Positions 4,702-47,270 are shown, counted from the first letter of the stretch. The stretch is 47,466 nucleotides of DNA from Nitrospirota bacterium (GCA_016217725.1 JACRHB010000177.1:1-47466); one strand, 5' to 3'. The notes: generated from the letters alone by a model not told the origin. Translations and numbers: made by a program.

Positions 4702-4731
4702 AATTTCACCTCTTTTAACTTTCTCTTTTTT

Positions 4732-4798
4732 GTCATTCCGGCTGGTCCGGAATCTTTCTTCAAAAGGATTCCCGACGCGCTTCGCTTGCGGGAATGAC
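4732..4798. repeat. GTCATTCC...GGAATGAC palindromic element
   Basis: gtcattccggctggtccggaatc matches the reverse complement of 9920-9942 at 22/23. Confidence 0.8.
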
Positions 4799-9873: not shown

Positions 9874-9942
9874 GTCATTCCTCCCGAAGCTTCGGGATCG
9901 GGAATCCTTCTTGCAAATCGATTCCGGACAAGCCGGAATGAC
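9874..9942. repeat. GTCATTCC...GGAATGAC element with nested cccgaagcttcggg hairpin
   Basis: Termini gtcattcc/ggaatgac; family of 4732-4798 and 28922-28948. Confidence 0.8.
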
Positions 9943-10114
9943 AAAAAAGAATCGCTCAATTTAGGTAGCAATAAAAATGCCAAGAAGGAGTAAAATTAAT
10001 TATTGTTTTTTATCAAAGAGATTGTGTGATAAGAAAGAGAACTTTTGAGTGTGCGCACATAAATCTTGACTGTCACAAAAGCGCCATGTGGTTCGATTTC
10101 ACTGCAGCGCGTTG

Positions 10115-10400: not shown

Positions 10401-10473
10401 GGTGTTCTCGTTCGTCTGTTACGTAAAAAAAATATGCACGCAGGCGAAAGCAGGAAAGGGCAAAAAGAAGGAG

Positions 10474-10567
10474 AACACACCCCTTAATCCCCTCTTGATA
10501 GAGGGGAAATAACAGGGCGTATTGCGATACGCCCCTACGGTACGGGTGAACGGCCGTTCGCCCGTAC
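10474..10567. repeat. cluster of one C/G-run palindrome and two GTAG-type REP hairpins
   Basis: aacacaccccttaatcccctcttgatagaggggaaa; gggcgtattgcgatacgcccctac; gtacgggtgaacggccgttcgcccgtac. Confidence 0.8.
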
Positions 10568-12562: not shown

Positions 12563-12575
12563 GGTTTTTCCGTAG

Positions 12576-12690
12576 ACCGTGACCGGTTAACGTGTCCGTC
12601 CACCGTGTCCGTTTTTTGTCTTTCACGGTCACGATTCACGGACACGCCTTACGATTTTTCCACGGTCACGTTAACCGGTCACGGTTCACG
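12576..12690. repeat. CGTGWCCGGTTAACGTG-family inverted repeat
   Basis: 24-bp arms 12576-12599 and 12662-12685 match 23/24; related copies at 32251 and 42884. Confidence 0.85.
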
Positions 12691-12698
12691 ATTCTCCC

Positions 12699-15160: not shown

Positions 15161-15170
15161 TGTTGTTTAA

Positions 15171-15291
15171 TTCCCCTCTTTGGAAAGAGGGGCCGGGCTC
15201 CCGTTGCTGTGAAGCATTGCAACGGGAAGTGGAAATTTTATATTATGATTCAAAAATCCCCCCTCGCCCCCCTTTGCTAAAGGGGGGAAAT
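15171..15291. repeat. composite C/G-run palindromic element with nested hairpin
   Basis: 39 bp (15195-15233) identical to 43289-43327 inside rsmE; second unit aatccccctcgccccctttgctaaagggggga. Confidence 0.9.
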
Positions 15292-15302
15292 CACGCCCTA
15301 CA

Positions 15303-15329
15303 TAACTCTTAACTCTTAACTCTTAACTC
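15303..15329. repeat. TAACTCT heptamer tract overlapping the RND stop codon
   Basis: taactct repeated ~4x; encodes GVKS-stop on the minus strand. Confidence 0.75.
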
Positions 15330-18426: not shown

Positions 18427-18439
18427 TAAAAAAACGTGG

Positions 18440-18514
18440 GGCGCAAAGGCACAAAGGCACAGAGGCACAGAGTATAAATAACTTTGTGCCTTTGTGCCTC
18501 TGCCACTTTGTGCC
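18440..18514. repeat. GGCACAAA octamer inverted-repeat element
   Basis: ggcgcaaa-ggcacaaa-ggcacaga-ggcacaga ... tttgtgcc-tttgtgcc-tctgccac-tttgtgcc; same family at 41490-41646. Confidence 0.85.
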
Positions 18515-18532
18515 TTTTATTTATTTGTTTTG

Positions 18533-19653: not shown

Positions 19654-21005
<1,352 letters not shown>

Positions 21006-23508: not shown

Positions 23509-23515
23509 AGACAAC

Positions 23516-23613
23516 GTCAAGAGTCAAGAGTTAAGAGTCAAGAGTTAAAAGTTTTAAAGACAATGTAATAGGAATTTTTTTCACTTTAAACTTTCAACTC
23601 TCAACTTTCAACT
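23516..23613. repeat. heptamer tandem inverted repeat
   Basis: gtcaaga-gtcaaga-gttaaga-gtcaaga-gttaaaa ... tttcact-ttaaact-ttcaact-ctcaact-ttcaact. Confidence 0.8.
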
Positions 23614-23685
23614 TATTCCGCCGTTGGCAATACAAAAGCAAATATGTTAATCTTATTGGTATAGTCTTTGCAGGAGGGACACAAT

Positions 23686-28624: not shown

Positions 28625-28645
28625 GAAATTTTGTGGTAGTCAATG

Positions 28646-28675
28646 CCCCCCTTTTCCAAAGGGGGGATGTTTTTA
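28646..28675 (+). terminator. C/G-run hairpin followed by T tract (repeat-derived terminator candidate)
   Basis: cccccctttt-cc-aaagggggg, then atgtttttatt. Confidence 0.45.
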
Positions 28676-28719
28676 TTCTCATTTGTGAGCCGAAAGCTTA
28701 TGCCGGTCTGATATAAATA

Positions 28720-32226: not shown

Positions 32227-32250
32227 GGCATCAGCACACAAAACGTTATC

Positions 32251-32303
32251 CGTGTCCGGTTAACGTGTCCGTAAAATATAACGGACAACGGTCACGGTCA
32301 ACG
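32251..32303. repeat. CGTGTCCGGTTAACGTG-family element
   Basis: cgtgtccggttaacgtgtccgtaaaa identical to 42884-42909. Confidence 0.85.
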
Positions 32304-41469: not shown

Positions 41470-41489
41470 CAGGCAGATATTTTTTACTA

Positions 41490-41646
41490 CAGACACAAAG
41501 GCACAGAGGCACAAAGTTAAGAAAAATATTAGAAGTTGGGAATTTGAGAACGTGAGAAAAAAATAATCTTTACTTTTTCTCAGCTTCTTAACTTCGTATC
41601 TTCTCAACTTCTTATTGTTCTCTGTGCCTCTGTGCCTTTGTGCCTG
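41490..41646. repeat. nested octamer inverted repeats (GGCACA outer, AGAAGTTG inner)
   Basis: Outer cacaaaggcacagaggcacaaag / ctctgtgcctctgtgcctttgtg; inner 41531-41612 agaagttg../..caacttct. Confidence 0.85.
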
Positions 41647-41651
41647 TTATT

Positions 41652-42830
41652 TTACTTCTTTCTTATTCGTGAAATCGCGTACCTGGCAAGCTCCGACATG
41701 TAGGCTGCGCCGAGCCGCAGGACTTCTTCGTCGAAGTCGAATCTCGGACTGTGGGACGGCGCATTTTCGAGCCCTTTCCTGGCCGCGCCGAACCTGACAA
41801 AGCAGCCTGGAATTTTCTGTAAATAGTATGCAAAGTCTTCACCGCCCAGCGTCGGGAAGGGGATGGCGATCGTGTTTTCACCGCCCAAAAGTTTTTCGGC
41901 GACGTCCCATGCGAATTCCACCGCCCTTTTCTCGTTTATCACCGGCGGGTATCCCGGTTTCAGCTCAACGTGTATCACGGCGTTATGGAGGACTGAAAAA
42001 GAAGAAGCCATCTTTTTAACCTTGCCGACAACCTGTTTCCTTACGGCTTCATCGGTCGTCCTTATAGTCCCTTTTAAAACGGCTTTCTCCGCAATGACAT
42101 TGTGCGCCGTTCCCGCATTTAAATGCCCGACGGTTATTACCGCGGGGTGAAACGGGTCTATCTCCCTCGAAATTATCGTCTGAAGGTTCATGACGAGCTG
42201 GCTTGCAATTACAACGGCGTCGACCGCCTCGTGAGGCTTTGCGGCGTGTCCTCCTTTCCCTGTAATCGTTATTTCAAAGCCGTCCGTGTATGCCGTATGC
42301 AGGCCGGTCTTGATCCCGAGCGTGCCTGAATTATAGTGCGTCTCGATATGGCCGCCGAAGATCATGTCCACGCCGTCGAGCGCGCCCTGTTCTATCATCG
42401 GCTTGGCCCCGCCTTCATTTTCCTCGGCAGGCTGGAATATGAAGACGACGTTTCCCTCGGGCGGGTTCTCTTTTAAAATTGTCGCTGCGCCGAGAGCGAT
42501 TGCCACGTGACCGTCGTGTCCGCAGGCATGCATTATACCGGGCGCCTCGGAAGAAAACGGAAGCCCGGTCTCTTCGGTTATCGGCAGGGCGTCCATATCC
42601 GCCCTGACGGCAATTGTCGGGGCGTTTTTATCGGTCATTAATTCTCCGACTATTCCCGTTCGCGCAATTCCTGTTTTGTGTCTGATCCCAAGCTCTTTCA
42701 ACGTATTGGATATCAGTCCGGCAGTCTCTTTTTCTTCATACCCCAATTCAGGCCGCCGGTGAATGGTCCGCCTGATATTTCTCATCCATTCAAAAAGCTC
42801 ATCGCTTACTATTTTGTTGAATTGCTTCAT
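41652..42830 (-). CDS. M20D-family amidohydrolase
   Basis: H..PELGYEE, RADMDALP, MHACGHDGH, FQPAEE, GKGGHAA.PH, GEDF; start MKQF after GAGG. Confidence 0.92.
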   Translation of the reverse strand: MKQFNKIVSDELFEWMRNIRRTIHRRPELGYEEKETAGLISNTLKELGIRHKTGIARTGIVGELMTDKNAPTIAVRADMDALPITEETGLPFSSEAPGIMHACGHDGHVAIALGAATILKENPPEGNVVFIFQPAEENEGGAKPMIEQGALDGVDMIFGGHIETHYNSGTLGIKTGLHTAYTDGFEITITGKGGHAAKPHEAVDAVVIASQLVMNLQTIISREIDPFHPAVITVGHLNAGTAHNVIAEKAVLKGTIRTTDEAVRKQVVGKVKKMASSFSVLHNAVIHVELKPGYPPVINEKRAVEFAWDVAEKLLGGENTIAIPFPTLGGEDFAYYLQKIPGCFVRFGAARKGLENAPSHSPRFDFDEEVLRLGAAYMSELARYAISRIRKK

Positions 42831-42883
42831 GGTATGCCTCTCTAACATTTCTATTAATAATATAAAACAGTTTATTCGTTATA

Positions 42884-42941
42884 CGTGTCCGGTTAACGTG
42901 TCCGTAAAAATAACGGACACGGACCACGGTCACGGTTTACG
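42884..42941. repeat. CGTGTCCGGTTAACGTG-family element
   Basis: Core shared with 32251 and 12578. Confidence 0.85.
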
Positions 42942-42947
42942 ACCCGG

Positions 42948-43793
42948 CTACCCCATATCCCCGAGCTTAAATTGAATAATGCTTATCGCCGCTATAGGCG
43001 CCGTCTCGGTGCGAAGGATCCGCGGGCCGAGCGAGGCTTCGATAAAACCTCTTTCAACTGCTGCTGCTACTTCATCTTTTGAAAACCCCCCTTCGGGACC
43101 GATTAGAAGGGTTATTTGTTTAATATCTTTGAGACCGGTCAAGACTTTTTTCAGATTTCTTTCTTTGTGTTCTTCGGAGAAGATGATACTGCAACATCCC
43201 CCTACATCCCCCTTTTTCAAAGGGGGAAAAAGTTCCCCTCTATCAAGAGGGGTCGGGGGTGTGTTCCCCTCTTTGGAAAAGAGGGGCTGGGCTCCCGTTG
43301 CTGTGAAGCATTGCAACGGGAAGTGGAGATTTTTTAAAAATTCCTTTATCTCCACAGCCTCCTCAATCTCCGGCACCCTCTCCCTCCCGCACTGCTGTGA
43401 GGCCGACAGGGCGATCTTCCGCCAGCGTTCAACCTTCTCCGTATGCCGCACTTGCGAACGTTCCGTAATAAGCGGAATGATCCTGCTTACGCCGAGCTCT
43501 GTTGCTTTCTGGATAATGAAGTCCATCTTGTCGCTTTTAGGCAAGCCCTGTGCGAGGGTTATCGAGACGGGCGATTCGGCGGAGTAGGGCTCTTTTTTTA
43601 TCTTCTCAACGACGACTTCTTTTTTGTGAACCTGGAGAATCCTGCAAATGTATCTATATCCGGAGCCGTCGAATATTACAAGTTGCTCGCCGGGATTCAC
43701 GCGGAGCACGAGCGAGAGATACCTTGCATTATCTCCGGTGATGGTGATTTTATCTGAACCGGCCTTTTCAACTGGAAGAAAGAGACGCGTCAT
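42948..43793 (-). CDS. rsmE: 16S rRNA m3U1498 methyltransferase with ~45-aa repeat-derived insert
   Basis: VLRV, QKATELGV, IGPEGGFS, LGPRILRTETA. Confidence 0.95.
   Translation of the reverse strand: MTRLFLPVEKAGSDKITITGDNARYLSLVLRVNPGEQLVIFDGSGYRYICRILQVHKKEVVVEKIKKEPYSAESPVSITLAQGLPKSDKMDFIIQKATELGVSRIIPLITERSQVRHTEKVERWRKIALSASQQCGRERVPEIEEAVEIKEFLKNLHFPLQCFTATGAQPLFSKEGNTPPTPLDRGELFPPLKKGDVGGCCSIIFSEEHKERNLKKVLTGLKDIKQITLLIGPEGGFSKDEVAAAVERGFIEASLGPRILRTETAPIAAISIIQFKLGDMG
43196..43332. repeat. composite of three C/G-run palindromes plus nested hairpin inside rsmE
   Basis: 43233-43252 is the reverse complement of the unit at 10474-10509; 43264-43332 matches 15171-15238. Confidence 0.92.
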
Positions 43794-43964
43794 TTGACTA
43801 TTTTATAACATCCAATATTTTCTGTTCCAATATTTTCTTGTAATCCTTTGCGCCCCCTGATATATTAAGTGCATTAAAATTCATCAGGGGTAAATCTGTA
43901 GGGCTTCAGTCTTGTGAATGAATGCAAACCCTACAGCAGCTCAATAAGCATTTTGCGGGGAGAA

Positions 43965-46900
43965 ATGAAGGGGGAAACAGGATCGCCTGCCAAAATAACA
44001 CGTCCGCACGTTTCAGATATTTTCCCGCGCAAAAGACTCTTTCGCCTTCTTGACGATAACAGAAAGCATTCCGTTGTGTGGTTGTCCGCGCCTGCGGGTT
44101 CGGGCAAGACCACGCTTGTTGCGAGTTATCTTGATGAACACAGGCTTCCCTTTCTCTGGTATCAGGTGGACAGGGGCGATGATGATTTAGCTGCATTTTT
44201 CTACTACATGGGGCATGCGGCAAAGAGAGCCGCTCCCCGCTATCGCAAACCGCTTCCTCTTTTAACCCCTGAATATCTGCCCGGACTGTCCACCTTTACC
44301 CGAAGGTATTTTGAGGAGATATATAAAAGGGTTCGAGGGGTCAAGGGTTCGAGGGTTCAAGTAAAGACTCGTGGCAAGCATCTGCTTGAACCCTTGACCC
44401 CTCGAACCCTCAAACCCTTCTGTATCGTTTTCGACAACTATCAGGAAGTCCCTGCCGGCTCCATGTTACACGAGACAATTAATGCGGGGCTGGACCTCAT
44501 CCCTGATGGAATAAGGGCCATCATTATAAGCAGGGCCCATCCGCCCGACGCCTATGCCCGGATGCGGTCAAACGATAAAATAACAGTAATTGATGATATC
44601 AGATTGACGGAGGAAGAGACCGCAGGGCTGATGAAGATGAAGGTGAAAGGCAAGGTTACGCCCGAGTGCGTACGCAAGGTTCACGAAAAGACGCAGGGAT
44701 GGGCTGCTGGGATAGTACTGATGCTTGAGAAAGCGCGGCAGGGGATGATGGATGCCGGCTCTATGGAAGACTCCGGGACGGATACCATCTTTGATTACTT
44801 TGCCACCGAGATATTTCAGAAGGTTGACGTAAACACACAGGTGTTTCTACTTAAGACCGCCTTCTTCCCTGACATGAATCTGCAGATGGCCGAAAGACTC
44901 ACCAGACTTGAAAATGCAGACCATATACTTTCCGAACTGACCCGCAATAATTTTTTCACGGAAAAGCGTCATCATACAAATCCTGTCTACCGGTATCATC
45001 CGCTTTTCAGGGAATTTCTTTTGTCTCAGGTAAAAGACTATTTCGTAAAAAATGACATCGCAGAGTTACAGAAAAAGACCGCGGCAATCCTTGAGGAATC
45101 GGGAAAGGTTGAGGATGCCTTTGCATTATACCGGAGCGCATGTGACAGCGAGGGCGCAATCAGGCTGATTATGACAAACGCAATGAAGCTGCTTCAGGCG
45201 GGAAGGATCAGGACACTTGAGGGATGGATTGCAGGCCTTCCTGATGAGATCAGGAACAACATGCCATGGCTTTTATACTGGCTCGGCGCCTGCCGGAGGC
45301 CGTTTAATCCACCTGAGAGTCTGGTCCATTTTGAAAAGGCCTTTGAGCTTTTCAGGGCGCAAAAGGATGCGGAAGGGGTATTTCTCTCATGGTCAGGGAT
45401 TGTCGATTCGATATATTTCGGATTTGACGATTTTAAGAGGCTTGACAGGTGGATAAAAATATTGGAGGCGCTTATCTCTGAATTCGGTGGGATCCCTGCC
45501 GGCGTGATAGATGCCCGTGTAAATGTAAACATGATTTGCGCCCTCCTGAGAAGAGACGCCGGGAATCCTGCTTTACGAAGGTTGCTGGAGCGCTCTGAGG
45601 CGCTGATAAACGAAAGTCGTGATAACAACCTGAATATAATTATGCTTTCACACCATCATCTCTACTATTTATATTGCGGCAATTTTGTAAGATCAGGCTT
45701 GATCGTCGAGAGGATGAGAGAGACATGCAAATCATGCGATATTGTATCATTATCGCATGTTATTCTGAAGCTGTCAGAAGCAATCCAGTTTAATTTTGTT
45801 GGAGACCTGGAAAAATGCAGAAGAGCTGTTGACGAGGGGCTGAAGCTCTCTGATGAATCAGGAGTGACCGTCTTGAACTTTATGTTAATGGGGCAGTTGG
45901 TGTGGATATCCATCGGCATGAACGATTTTAAGACTGCCGGAGACTGTCTTAAGAAAATAGAGTCGTCAATGGCAATGTTGCGCCCTTTTGATATTGCTTT
46001 TTATCACCACCTTAAAAGTTGTGAAGCCCTGGGAAAAGGGGACCTGCAACAGGCAAAAGAGCATGCGGAACTGGTGATGGCAATCACCTATAAAATCGGC
46101 GCTCGCTCAAACTATGCTTTAATGAATCTATTATATGCACAAGTTTTATGTGAGCTTGGAGAATGCGGAAAAGCGGTCGAACACATTTCAGCAGCGCGAG
46201 ATGTCTGGGAATATTTTAAAAGCCCGTTTGAAGAGTTTTCGCGTCTACTGATTGAGGCCAAGATTTCCTTTGGTCAGGGAGATGAAAAACAGGGCCTTAA
46301 ACATCTCAGCCAGGCCATGACGTTGGGAAGAGAATGCGGATACGTCATGACGTATATATGGCGCCCCTCTATCATGGCAAACCTCTGCGCAACGGCGCTT
46401 GAAAACGGGATTGAGGTTGACTATGTACAGCATTTGATAAGGAAGCGGGATCTTGTCCCTGAAAATCCGCCCGTGCATCTGGACAACTGGCCCTGGCAGT
46501 TAAAGATATATACACTCGGCAGGTTTGGAATATTGAAGGACGGGAAGCCTGTGGAGTTTTCTGGCAAGGCCCAGAAGAAACCTCTTGAGCTGCTTAAATG
46601 CCTGATTGCCCTCGGAGGCAGGGAGATCAGCGAGCAGACGATAACCGATATACTCTGGCAGGACGCAGACGCGGACATGGCCCGCCATTCCTTCAAGATC
46701 ACGCTTCACCGTCTCAGGAAACTGCTCCAGCATGAAAACGCAATCCGTCTCTCCGGCAGCCATCTTAGTCTGGACCCGTGGTGCTGCCGGGTGGATGTGT
46801 GGGCCTTTGAGCGTTTCCTTGGGGAAGCTGATATTAATTGGAATAAAGGTCTGTCGGATAACGCCGCCCAGTTGACCGAAAAAGCTGTCAGGATGTATCA

Positions 46901-47270
46901 AGGGGCTTTCCTTTCCCGGGAACCTGAGCCATGGATAACATCCACGCGTGAAAAACTCAGGAGCAAGTTCCTGCGGAATGTTATGAAGCTTTGCCATTAT
47001 TACAAGGAGAGGAAACAGTGGCAAAAGGCCCTCGACTGCTGCCACAAGGCCCTTGAAACAGACAGCCTTGCAGAGGAGTGTTATCAGCATCTCATGAAAT
47101 GCTATCACCAGCTCGGCAGGAAGGCGGAAGCCGTTGCGGTATATGAGAAGTGCAGGAATGTTTTATCCTCATCACTCGGAGTAAATCCATCGCCTGAGAC
47201 AGAGAGAATTTACCGGGAAGTGACGGAAGAGAATAAAAAGTATATCGATAGGCGCAGGAATAAATTCTAA
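43965..47270 (+). CDS. MalT-like STAND ATPase with TPR-like region and C-terminal winged-helix/BTAD (SARP-type) domains
   Basis: AKITRP, APAGSGKTT, VFDNYQ, TQGWAAG, YRYHPLF; TLGRF, LLKCL, LWQD, TLHRLRKLL, VDVWAF, YQGAFL, EECYQHLM, LGVNPSPET; start at ATG 43965 after GGGGAG. Confidence 0.88.
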   Translation: MKGETGSPAKITRPHVSDIFPRKRLFRLLDDNRKHSVVWLSAPAGSGKTTLVASYLDEHRLPFLWYQVDRGDDDLAAFFYYMGHAAKRAAPRYRKPLPLLTPEYLPGLSTFTRRYFEEIYKRVRGVKGSRVQVKTRGKHLLEPLTPRTLKPFCIVFDNYQEVPAGSMLHETINAGLDLIPDGIRAIIISRAHPPDAYARMRSNDKITVIDDIRLTEEETAGLMKMKVKGKVTPECVRKVHEKTQGWAAGIVLMLEKARQGMMDAGSMEDSGTDTIFDYFATEIFQKVDVNTQVFLLKTAFFPDMNLQMAERLTRLENADHILSELTRNNFFTEKRHHTNPVYRYHPLFREFLLSQVKDYFVKNDIAELQKKTAAILEESGKVEDAFALYRSACDSEGAIRLIMTNAMKLLQAGRIRTLEGWIAGLPDEIRNNMPWLLYWLGACRRPFNPPESLVHFEKAFELFRAQKDAEGVFLSWSGIVDSIYFGFDDFKRLDRWIKILEALISEFGGIPAGVIDARVNVNMICALLRRDAGNPALRRLLERSEALINESRDNNLNIIMLSHHHLYYLYCGNFVRSGLIVERMRETCKSCDIVSLSHVILKLSEAIQFNFVGDLEKCRRAVDEGLKLSDESGVTVLNFMLMGQLVWISIGMNDFKTAGDCLKKIESSMAMLRPFDIAFYHHLKSCEALGKGDLQQAKEHAELVMAITYKIGARSNYALMNLLYAQVLCELGECGKAVEHISAARDVWEYFKSPFEEFSRLLIEAKISFGQGDEKQGLKHLSQAMTLGRECGYVMTYIWRPSIMANLCATALENGIEVDYVQHLIRKRDLVPENPPVHLDNWPWQLKIYTLGRFGILKDGKPVEFSGKAQKKPLELLKCLIALGGREISEQTITDILWQDADADMARHSFKITLHRLRKLLQHENAIRLSGSHLSLDPWCCRVDVWAFERFLGEADINWNKGLSDNAAQLTEKAVRMYQGAFLSREPEPWITSTREKLRSKFLRNVMKLCHYYKERKQWQKALDCCHKALETDSLAEECYQHLMKCYHQLGRKAEAVAVYEKCRNVLSSSLGVNPSPETERIYREVTEENKKYIDRRRNKF
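44327..44419. repeat. AGGGTTCR octamer inverted repeat inside the STAND ATPase domain
   Basis: agggttcg-aggggtca-agggttcg-agggttca ... tgaaccct-tgacccct-cgaaccct-caaaccct. Confidence 0.9.

Follow-up and report, generated by a model that had tools for sequence, protein, structure and literature searches.

The DNA analyzed here (hereinafter, the window) is a stretch of 47,466 nucleotides (GCA_016217725.1 JACRHB010000177.1:1-47466) from a genome of 2.77 Mb in 225 contigs, denoted G000, that belongs to Thermodesulfovibrionia (Nitrospirota); the relatives with which this genome is compared are Thermodesulfovibrionia MAGs. The gene at the center of the analysis, rsmE, is encoded on the minus strand and contains a stretch of repetitive DNA at positions 43193-43335 which, read from the minus strand, corresponds to residues ~154-201 of the protein. 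The features of this locus and two related intergenic features of the window are as follows (for the parts of the repeat, the plus strand is the own orientation of the element):

42948-43793, minus strand: rsmE (16S rRNA m3U1498 methyltransferase family), an intact 281-aa open reading frame (ORF) holding the repeat.
43193-43335, plus strand: whole long-form repeat copy (nhmmer 168.9 bits, model positions 1-150).
43193-43207, plus strand: outer C-run and left terminus, AACATCCCCCTACAT, which pairs with the G-run at 43253-43265.
43208-43226, plus strand: hairpin A (C5, T-rich loop, G5), 100% identical to C125:20279-20297 and others.
43233-43252, plus strand: hairpin B, the exact reverse complement of 10489-10508.
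43253-43265, plus strand: outer G-run, TCGGGGGTGTGTT, which closes unit U1 (43193-43265).
43266-43286, plus strand: hairpin C, the first part of the 69-bp unit U2D (43266-43334).
43287-43324, plus strand: linker CTGGG and hairpin D, holding a 39-bp exact match to 15195-15233.
43325-43335, plus strand: right terminus, GGAGATTTTTT, the inverted counterpart of the canonical left terminus.
15168-15240, plus strand: stand-alone intergenic U2D (hairpin C, hairpin D and right terminus; model positions 74-147), located outside any open frame.
10464-10508, minus strand: stand-alone intergenic hairpin B and G-run (43233-43274 versus 10508-10464, 86.7% identity).

The assignment of the gene to RsmE, a housekeeping SPOUT methyltransferase, and the in-frame reading of the peptide quoted in the initial annotation are both borne out. 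The protein matches PF04452 (E 9e-53, split into two stretches) and the PUA domain family PF20260, both above the cut-off; among the 12 solved RsmE-family chains that were matched, the closest structure is E. coli RsmE (4e8b, E 1.6e-42), and the top Foldseek matches of the RsmE model are all RsmE-family structures. The protein combines an N-terminal PUA-like domain with a C-terminal SPOUT methyltransferase domain that contains the conserved knot motifs, and all 14 invariant columns of a 35-sequence RsmE alignment are represented. Judged by this alignment and the domain matches, both domains and every invariant family residue are intact despite the insert, and we infer that the insert is probably translated and the enzyme functional. 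In the AlphaFold2 model built on the same alignment (mean pLDDT 84.4), the PUA and SPOUT domains outside the insert are mostly above 85, the 10-residue blocks over residues 161-200 average 43-58, residues 159-178 are below 50, and no secondary structure is predicted for residues 156-199, between the helix 149-155 and the strand 200-205. The insert thus adds ~45-48 Pro/Gly-rich residues, predicted to be disordered, to a loop of the SPOUT domain. Distant RsmE proteins lack this segment: the solved E. coli and H. influenzae structures align only to either side of the insert.

The initial annotation described the segment as a mosaic of three independently mobile pieces that abut one another, and the individual matches on which this description was built are real. 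Positions 43289-43327 are identical to 15195-15233 (39/39), the exact match ending there on both sides; with mismatches allowed, the similarity extends to 43264-43333 versus 15171-15239 (95.7% over 70 columns). Likewise, the reverse complement of 43233-43252 is found without mismatch at 10489-10508, inside the intergenic segment 10474-10509 that had been pointed out, and when up to two mismatches are allowed, this 20-mer is found in only two places in the window and shows 0 matches in 100 shuffles. The third C/G-run unit corresponds to hairpin A, which also resembles window positions 20277-20309 and 28645-28677. The repeat-derived stretch, originally placed at 43196-43332, is confirmed with slightly wider boundaries (43193-43335, ~143 bp). 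Its composition is different, with four hairpins (A, B, C and D) and an outer stem rather than three units. When the insert is folded as single-stranded DNA (-39.5 kcal/mol, z -5.5; none of 200 shuffled sequences folds as well), the predicted structure has hairpins A and B inside the outer stem, and hairpins C and D come next. A relationship to known Rfam families was considered and rejected as chance: a search of 42800-43900 at E <=1 returned four matches far below the gathering scores (best 28 bits versus a cut-off of 70).

This architecture is not confined to rsmE. A blastn search of G000 with positions 43150-43380 yielded 253 HSPs, and the alignment of 18 of these reveals one common arrangement: the left terminus AAAATCCCCCT.CAT, hairpin A, hairpin B, the G-run TTAGGGGTGTGT, hairpin C, optionally CTGGG and hairpin D, and the right terminus GGAGATTTTT. 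The rsmE copy contains every module in the canonical order; the 143-bp insert is a complete copy from a modular family of non-coding, multi-hairpin repeats. Three further full-length long forms were found in G000, at C105:18891-19036 (88.6%), C175:4587-4449 and C193:5072-5207, with 86.5-88.6% identity to the rsmE copy over 141-149 aligned columns, along with ~30 short forms of roughly 100 bp each that lack D; in most comparisons with other copies, the rsmE copy shows 85-91% identity. Long and short forms alike end in terminal inverted repeats (AAAATCCCCC... and ...GGGGAGATTTT). No consistent direct repeat or target-site duplication was seen among the 18 aligned copies, the flanks of which are A/T-rich. 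Profiles seeded with 13 short and 4 long copies (nhmmer, E <=1e-3) gave 265 and 219 matches in G000, respectively, which were merged into 218 loci. Many of these match profile positions 2-75 only, that is, unit U1, and others only hairpin C, hairpin D and the terminus, that is, U2D, as at 15168-15240. As the alignments and partial matches indicate, the family is composed of two units: U1, which includes the outer C-run, A, B and the outer G-run, and U2, which includes C and a terminal G-run and in which D may be nested. Hairpin D is present in 17 copies in G000, all 17 located between a C/G hairpin followed by CYGGG and a terminal G-run, so D can be regarded as a repeat that lives only within other repeats. 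Long forms were also detected in two other species, G007 (89%) and G009 (87%), and the family is present in 30 of the 41 genomes searched. No description of it was found in the literature on Nitrospirae and Thermodesulfovibrio repeats, in a search that covered few subscription journals.

These data bear directly on the original proposal that three separate small mobile elements arrived recently and sequentially at one hotspot. The separate occurrence of B with the G-run (10464-10508) and of C with D (15168-15240), together with the 39/39 identity to an intergenic copy, speaks for independent pieces. However, A, B and the outer stem recur as one unit at many loci, D is never free, and the order and junctions of the modules match those of the canonical composite, which recurs full-length at three other places in G000; A and B form U1, and C and D form U2D. 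Moreover, the level of identity to other copies gives no sign of a very recent arrival. In this form, the proposal appears very improbable.

Several further repeats in the window are reported here as separate observations. Another dispersed family (...CCGTGTCCGGTTAACGTGTCCGT...) occupies the spacer immediately downstream of rsmE (42876-42935) and also in intergenic regions 12571-12693 and 32241-32276. The 1118-aa ORF adjoining rsmE (43914-47270) contains in frame, at 44328-44418, an inverted repeat of 7-8-base tandem units (arms 44328-44353 and 44385-44410, 96% complementary), which represents another type of translated hairpin repeat, distinct from the one in rsmE. At intergenic positions 2466-2539, 15300-15329, 23515-23615, 18439-18517 and 41489-41647, there are hairpins made of heptamer and octamer tandem repeats (AGTTAAG-type and CACAAAGG-type), some in inverted pairs.

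Given the abundance of similar sequences, the assembly itself has to be considered: the two halves of rsmE could have been joined through a collapsed or chimeric repeat, the interior being different in the actual cell. The genome is split into 225 contigs and contains more than 200 similar repeat loci; in the one gene-bearing public run, X1 (probably the source sample), no contig spans 43222-43310; and the depth summed over the modules exceeds that of the flanks by a factor of thousands, which implies many look-alikes in the sample. A contig bridging this interior was sought in runs X1-X3, and none was found; among the public runs listed for the gene, none was an RNA run. Nevertheless, the contigs of X1 cover 43033-43221 and 43311-43850 and so confirm both gene-repeat junctions, with 0-2 differences; the reading frame and the canonical module order are preserved; and independent assemblies of relatives have repeats at exactly the same site. 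Taken together, these observations make an artefact very unlikely. In X2 and X3, almost no unique rsmE sequence is represented, and the pieces fall on the repeat modules and on a short stretch near 43000. With respect to the depth, the summed value over modules A and B (43188-43283) reaches ~61,000 compared to ~11 on the rsmE flanks, and modules A and B are also found in many contigs of X2 and X3, which come from two other groundwater samples; the repeat modules seem to be common to many organisms of the groundwater community.

The presence of a repeat in a coding sequence is not peculiar to rsmE either. When an in-frame locus is defined by a stop-free frame running at least 40 codons on both sides, 34 of the 53 G000 loci that score at least 60 bits are in frame inside ORFs. 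The profiles were seeded with copies that resemble the genic rsmE copy, a choice that favors genic copies among the highest-scoring loci. Apart from rsmE, the other 33 in-frame loci belong to 32 distinct host ORFs, 28 of which contain Pfam domains (E <=1e-5). These hosts include MnmE, AcrB, Tgt, QueH, QueA, a nitrogenase-like oxidoreductase, pyruvate kinase, ribonucleotide reductase, PPDK, asparagine synthase, UvrD, an SRP54-type GTPase, HemN, ResB, radical SAM enzymes and glycosyltransferases. The rsmE insert, which had been presented as the strongest internal proof of mobility, is no special proof in this respect, as at least 34 copies, that of rsmE among them, lie in frame within genes. In either orientation, the consensus offers a single frame without stops, and 24 of the 34 in-frame copies, that of rsmE included, are read against the orientation of the element; the dominant peptide among these 24 is that of the consensus -1 frame, and rsmE uses the commoner frame. 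With a single stop-free frame per orientation, copies are retained in genes only at places that tolerate their length, frame and position (surface loops). Enrichment of the family in genes was considered and rejected because, of all loci, 70 of 218 are in open frames compared to 659 of 1000 random intervals. The genic copies represent survivorship, not preference. As a separate observation, a multi-haem cytochrome c ORF of 710 aa (C169:2280-4409) contains two separate in-frame short forms in opposite orientations.

To compare alleles, 25 RsmE orthologues were aligned and the slot between the 'EFL(K)' and 'IIFSE' motifs was read as DNA in 19 of them; a 20th locus (L014) did not match these anchors. 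The repeat content of the slot differs among the ~20 related genomes, and its length ranges from 159 nt (G005 and G028) to 282 nt in G000, the longest. In G008, the slot consists of G-run', B' and A', and in G007 of G-run', B', A', D and the terminus, with D at the opposite end and in the opposite orientation compared to G000. The slot of G026 contains C, A and the terminus, and that of G005 resembles the G008 type with the C-run arms lost. Unrelated repeat families occupy the slot in G009 (L003; GTCATTCC...GGAATGAC) and G006 (L007; GGGGCACGGC...GCCGTGCCCC). A similar inverted pair, GTCATTCCGG...CCGGAATGAC, is present in intergenic positions 4724-4763 and 9911-9950 of the window. In G002, which belongs to the same genus (L002, G002:C6), the slot contains in-frame stops and the frame is kept downstream; possible explanations are a pseudogene, a split gene and a sequencing error in this 10-contig assembly. 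As judged from the aligned slots, the RsmE slot is a hypervariable hotspot for repeats, in agreement with the part of the initial annotation that placed a hotspot here.

The details of the junctions are informative. In G007 and G008 alike, U1 starts at nucleotide 462 of the CDS, and the start in G000 corresponds to it once the 69-nt U2D is set aside; the 3' junction is common to G000 and G008; and the extra block in G000 is exactly U2D (69 bp, 23 codons). Within U1, G000 is identical to G007 at 53 of 57 positions and to G008 at ~87%, compared to 73-79% for the flanking rsmE DNA. Given that U1 is more alike than its flanks, the repeat was either re-acquired, homogenized against the family, or constrained as DNA, and is not simply inherited neutral filler.

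The same pattern was observed in all 5 other hosts examined, namely mnmE, a ferredoxin-like gene, tgt, pyruvate kinase and queA: the very loop that holds the element in G000 is occupied in some relatives by this family or by different repeat families, and other relatives have almost nothing there. For the ferredoxin-like gene, a single hairpin with one or more G-runs and a common 3' junction is present in G008, G009 and G003, and G000 has the full long form. Together with the restriction of D to the interior of other repeats, these slots suggest that the repeats prefer to land in existing repeats or to convert them.

Such recurrence in the loops of unrelated proteins raises the question whether RsmE and the other hosts have gained, under selection, a functional Pro/Gly-rich segment, such as a binding or localization loop, rather than tolerated selfish DNA. 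Similar peptides are indeed present in many hosts, and the DNA of the element is better conserved between species than the flanking coding DNA. However, the same DNA is also found in intergenic regions and in both orientations; the content of the slots varies between close relatives, some slots being nearly empty; the segment is disordered in the model; and the conservation tracks the hairpin arms, which fits a constraint at the DNA level. A functional role for the peptide accordingly seems highly improbable.

With respect to the origin of the rsmE copy, it appears somewhat probable, on the strength of the slot comparison, that it was built in at least two steps. In the first step, U1 would have been inserted at one codon position and in one orientation, as in two other species of the genus (G007 and G008); in the second step, G000 would have gained the 69-bp (23-codon) U2D beside U1, the likely route being either insertion of a repeat into a repeat or gene conversion from another long-form copy. 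Existing repeats would thereby act as landing pads for new ones, which would explain long-lived, hypervariable repeat slots in the same protein loops. The earlier notion of serial insertion is consistent with this course of events as far as the slots of G007 and G008 make two or more steps likely, whereas the qualifier 'recent' finds little support in the mostly 85-91% identity. Alternatively, the whole 143-bp long form could have arrived pre-assembled, in the manner of a MITE, possibly replacing an older repeat, in which case the U1-only states of G007 and G008 would be separate events or partial deletions. The long-form composite exists as a unit with the same junctions at three other loci of G000 and in G007 and G009 (86.5-89%), so that arrival in a single step is conceivable. 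Furthermore, the ferredoxin-like gene has the long form only in G000, 4 of its 5 orthologues having a much shorter element; partial loss of hairpin arms does happen, as in the slot of G005 compared to G008; and the high identity of U1 between species could reflect independent recent insertions rather than common ancestry, which weakens the stepwise reading. Nevertheless, given the same codon and orientation of U1 in G007 and G008, the 3' junction common to G000 and G008, and an extra block in G000 that is exactly U2D, a unit that also stands alone (15168-15240), the arrival of the complete long form in one event seems rather unlikely; besides, D at the opposite end in G007 requires a separate event anyway.

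A candidate for the agent that moves the repeats in trans emerged from the gene neighborhoods. There are three strong DUF559 genes in G000, and a C-run hairpin adjoins all three; at C126 and C121, the flanks of these genes are nearly letter-for-letter the B hairpin and G-run of rsmE. We take DUF559 to be a family with a Vsr-like fold (PD-(D/E)XK). In G000 and 40 relatives, 29 DUF559 loci (26 small ORFs of 110-175 aa and 3 long fused ORFs) were scored for a motif consisting of a C-rich 6-bp stem, a loop of 2-12 and a G-run. Among the small ORFs, the motif is present upstream in 23 of 26, inverted downstream in 18, on at least one side in all 26 and on both sides in 15, counts that overstate independence because the genomes are kin, even though the hairpin sequences differ between lineages. 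In the controls, the motif was found in 42 of 3000 random windows (1.4%) and in 101 of 3000 ORF upstream regions (3.4%). Of the long fused ORFs, two out of three have the motif. In these ORFs (L147, L163 and L170 of G011, G010 and G005, respectively), the DUF559 domain lies within 517-766 aa, and in two of the three the hairpin and G-run are located beside the domain inside the ORF; here, the domain may be a nuclease cassette that was inserted in frame into a larger gene. No hairpin-bracketed DUF559 was found in the literature on DUF559 together with repeats or mobility, in a search of equally limited journal coverage. A RAYT/Y1 transposase as the partner was also considered and rejected: none of the five Y1_Tnp genes of G000 is flanked by the family, and just one of them lies less than 1.5 kb from a family locus, which scores weakly (32 bits) and is ~760 bp away.

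The bracketing of DUF559 genes by inverted B and G-run elements would make the repeats gene-less derivatives of DUF559 cassettes, and tentatively, the small DUF559 nuclease can be proposed as the trans-acting agent. Seen in genome sequences, the link between DUF559 and the repeats is an association only, and the hairpin could alternatively be a terminator or a ribosome-site feature of the DUF559 genes. When all lines of evidence are considered jointly, the explanation that we find best, and on the whole probable, is that a copy of the family resides in rsmE, that it grew stepwise, and that DUF559 is a candidate agent.

The rsmE insert is, then, nothing unusual within a family of translated hairpin repeats that extends over the whole genome. 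Its existence would carry the Rickettsia type of selfish DNA in coding genes over to free-living, uncultivated Nitrospirota, at a comparable density. Three features go beyond the literature found on such repeats: the modularity, with module D found only inside other repeats; the behavior of host-protein loops as enduring slots in which the repeats are exchanged more rapidly than the gene around them changes, suggesting that repeats target repeats; and the candidate partner gene, DUF559, bracketed by the same hairpins, which renders the mechanism of mobility testable. The practical effects of the inserts include longer proteins, split Pfam matches, broken metagenome assemblies and pseudogene look-alikes. 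Going further, one might speculate that these repeats belong to an undescribed class of selfish elements, in which a small DUF559 gene is bounded by inverted C-run/G-run hairpins, the enzyme targets hairpin repeats that are already in place, and repair or gene conversion copies new modules into these older ones. Dozens of essential proteins (RsmE, MnmE, Tgt, QueA, pyruvate kinase and others) would in this way acquire permanent slots in their surface loops that evolve rapidly, throughout a bacterial order and probably outside it as well. We regard this broader scenario as possible rather than probable.

Among known systems, a precedent for a nuclease of this fold is provided by the Vsr-like 'EDxHD' homing endonucleases, such as I-Bth0305I, which, in the accessible portion of the source, illustrate how selfish DNA can be spread by a nuclease of the Vsr fold, and which reside in group I introns or inteins and carry additional DNA-binding domains (PMC3239194). 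In contrast, the small DUF559 ORFs, with their putative role, stand alone between inverted hairpins. MITEs, as characterized in the available sections of a review (PMC10969869), share with the Nitrospirota repeats the small size, the non-coding nature, terminal inverted repeats, a high copy number and fusions that now and then join them in frame to host ORFs. Unlike MITEs, the present family combines its modules in variable ways; no consistent target-site duplication was recognized among the 18 aligned copies. A parent insertion sequence with the same ends was not found in a transposase check that consisted of the five Y1_Tnp genes.

In BIMEs and REPINs, REP palindromes are combined into mosaics with alternating orientations, and the RAYT (Y1 transposase) gene is flanked by repeats. 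The Nitrospirota family resembles these systems in being made of short, GC-rich, imperfect palindromes present in hundreds of copies and assembled into mosaics, and in that the proposed partner gene is flanked by the repeats. It differs in that the flanked gene is DUF559 rather than Y1_Tnp and in the many copies found in coding frames, REPs seldom overlapping coding regions by definition, according to the consulted part of the source (PMC12306157).

The closest parallel is with the Rickettsia palindromic elements (RPE), which, in the available portion of the review, are dispersed palindromes of ~100-150 bp, often located in frame in unrelated housekeeping genes, and encode a conserved peptide that was judged compatible with the fold of the host protein (Ogata et al., 2000, 2002, as reported in PMC10969869). 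Compared by description rather than by sequence, the two families share a hairpin-forming palindrome of ~100-150 bp, many in-frame copies in unrelated intact genes and a conserved peptide. The Nitrospirota repeats differ from RPE in the host phylum (Nitrospirota, Thermodesulfovibrionia), in the modular organization with U1, U2 and the nested D, and in the C-run/G-run hairpins. By analogy, they would appear to work like RPE, which is a likeness and not membership in that family, and they go beyond RPE, as the latter are described in the accessible text of the review (PMC10969869), in that orthologous loops serve as repeat slots with turnover across an order and in that the hairpins bracket DUF559 genes.
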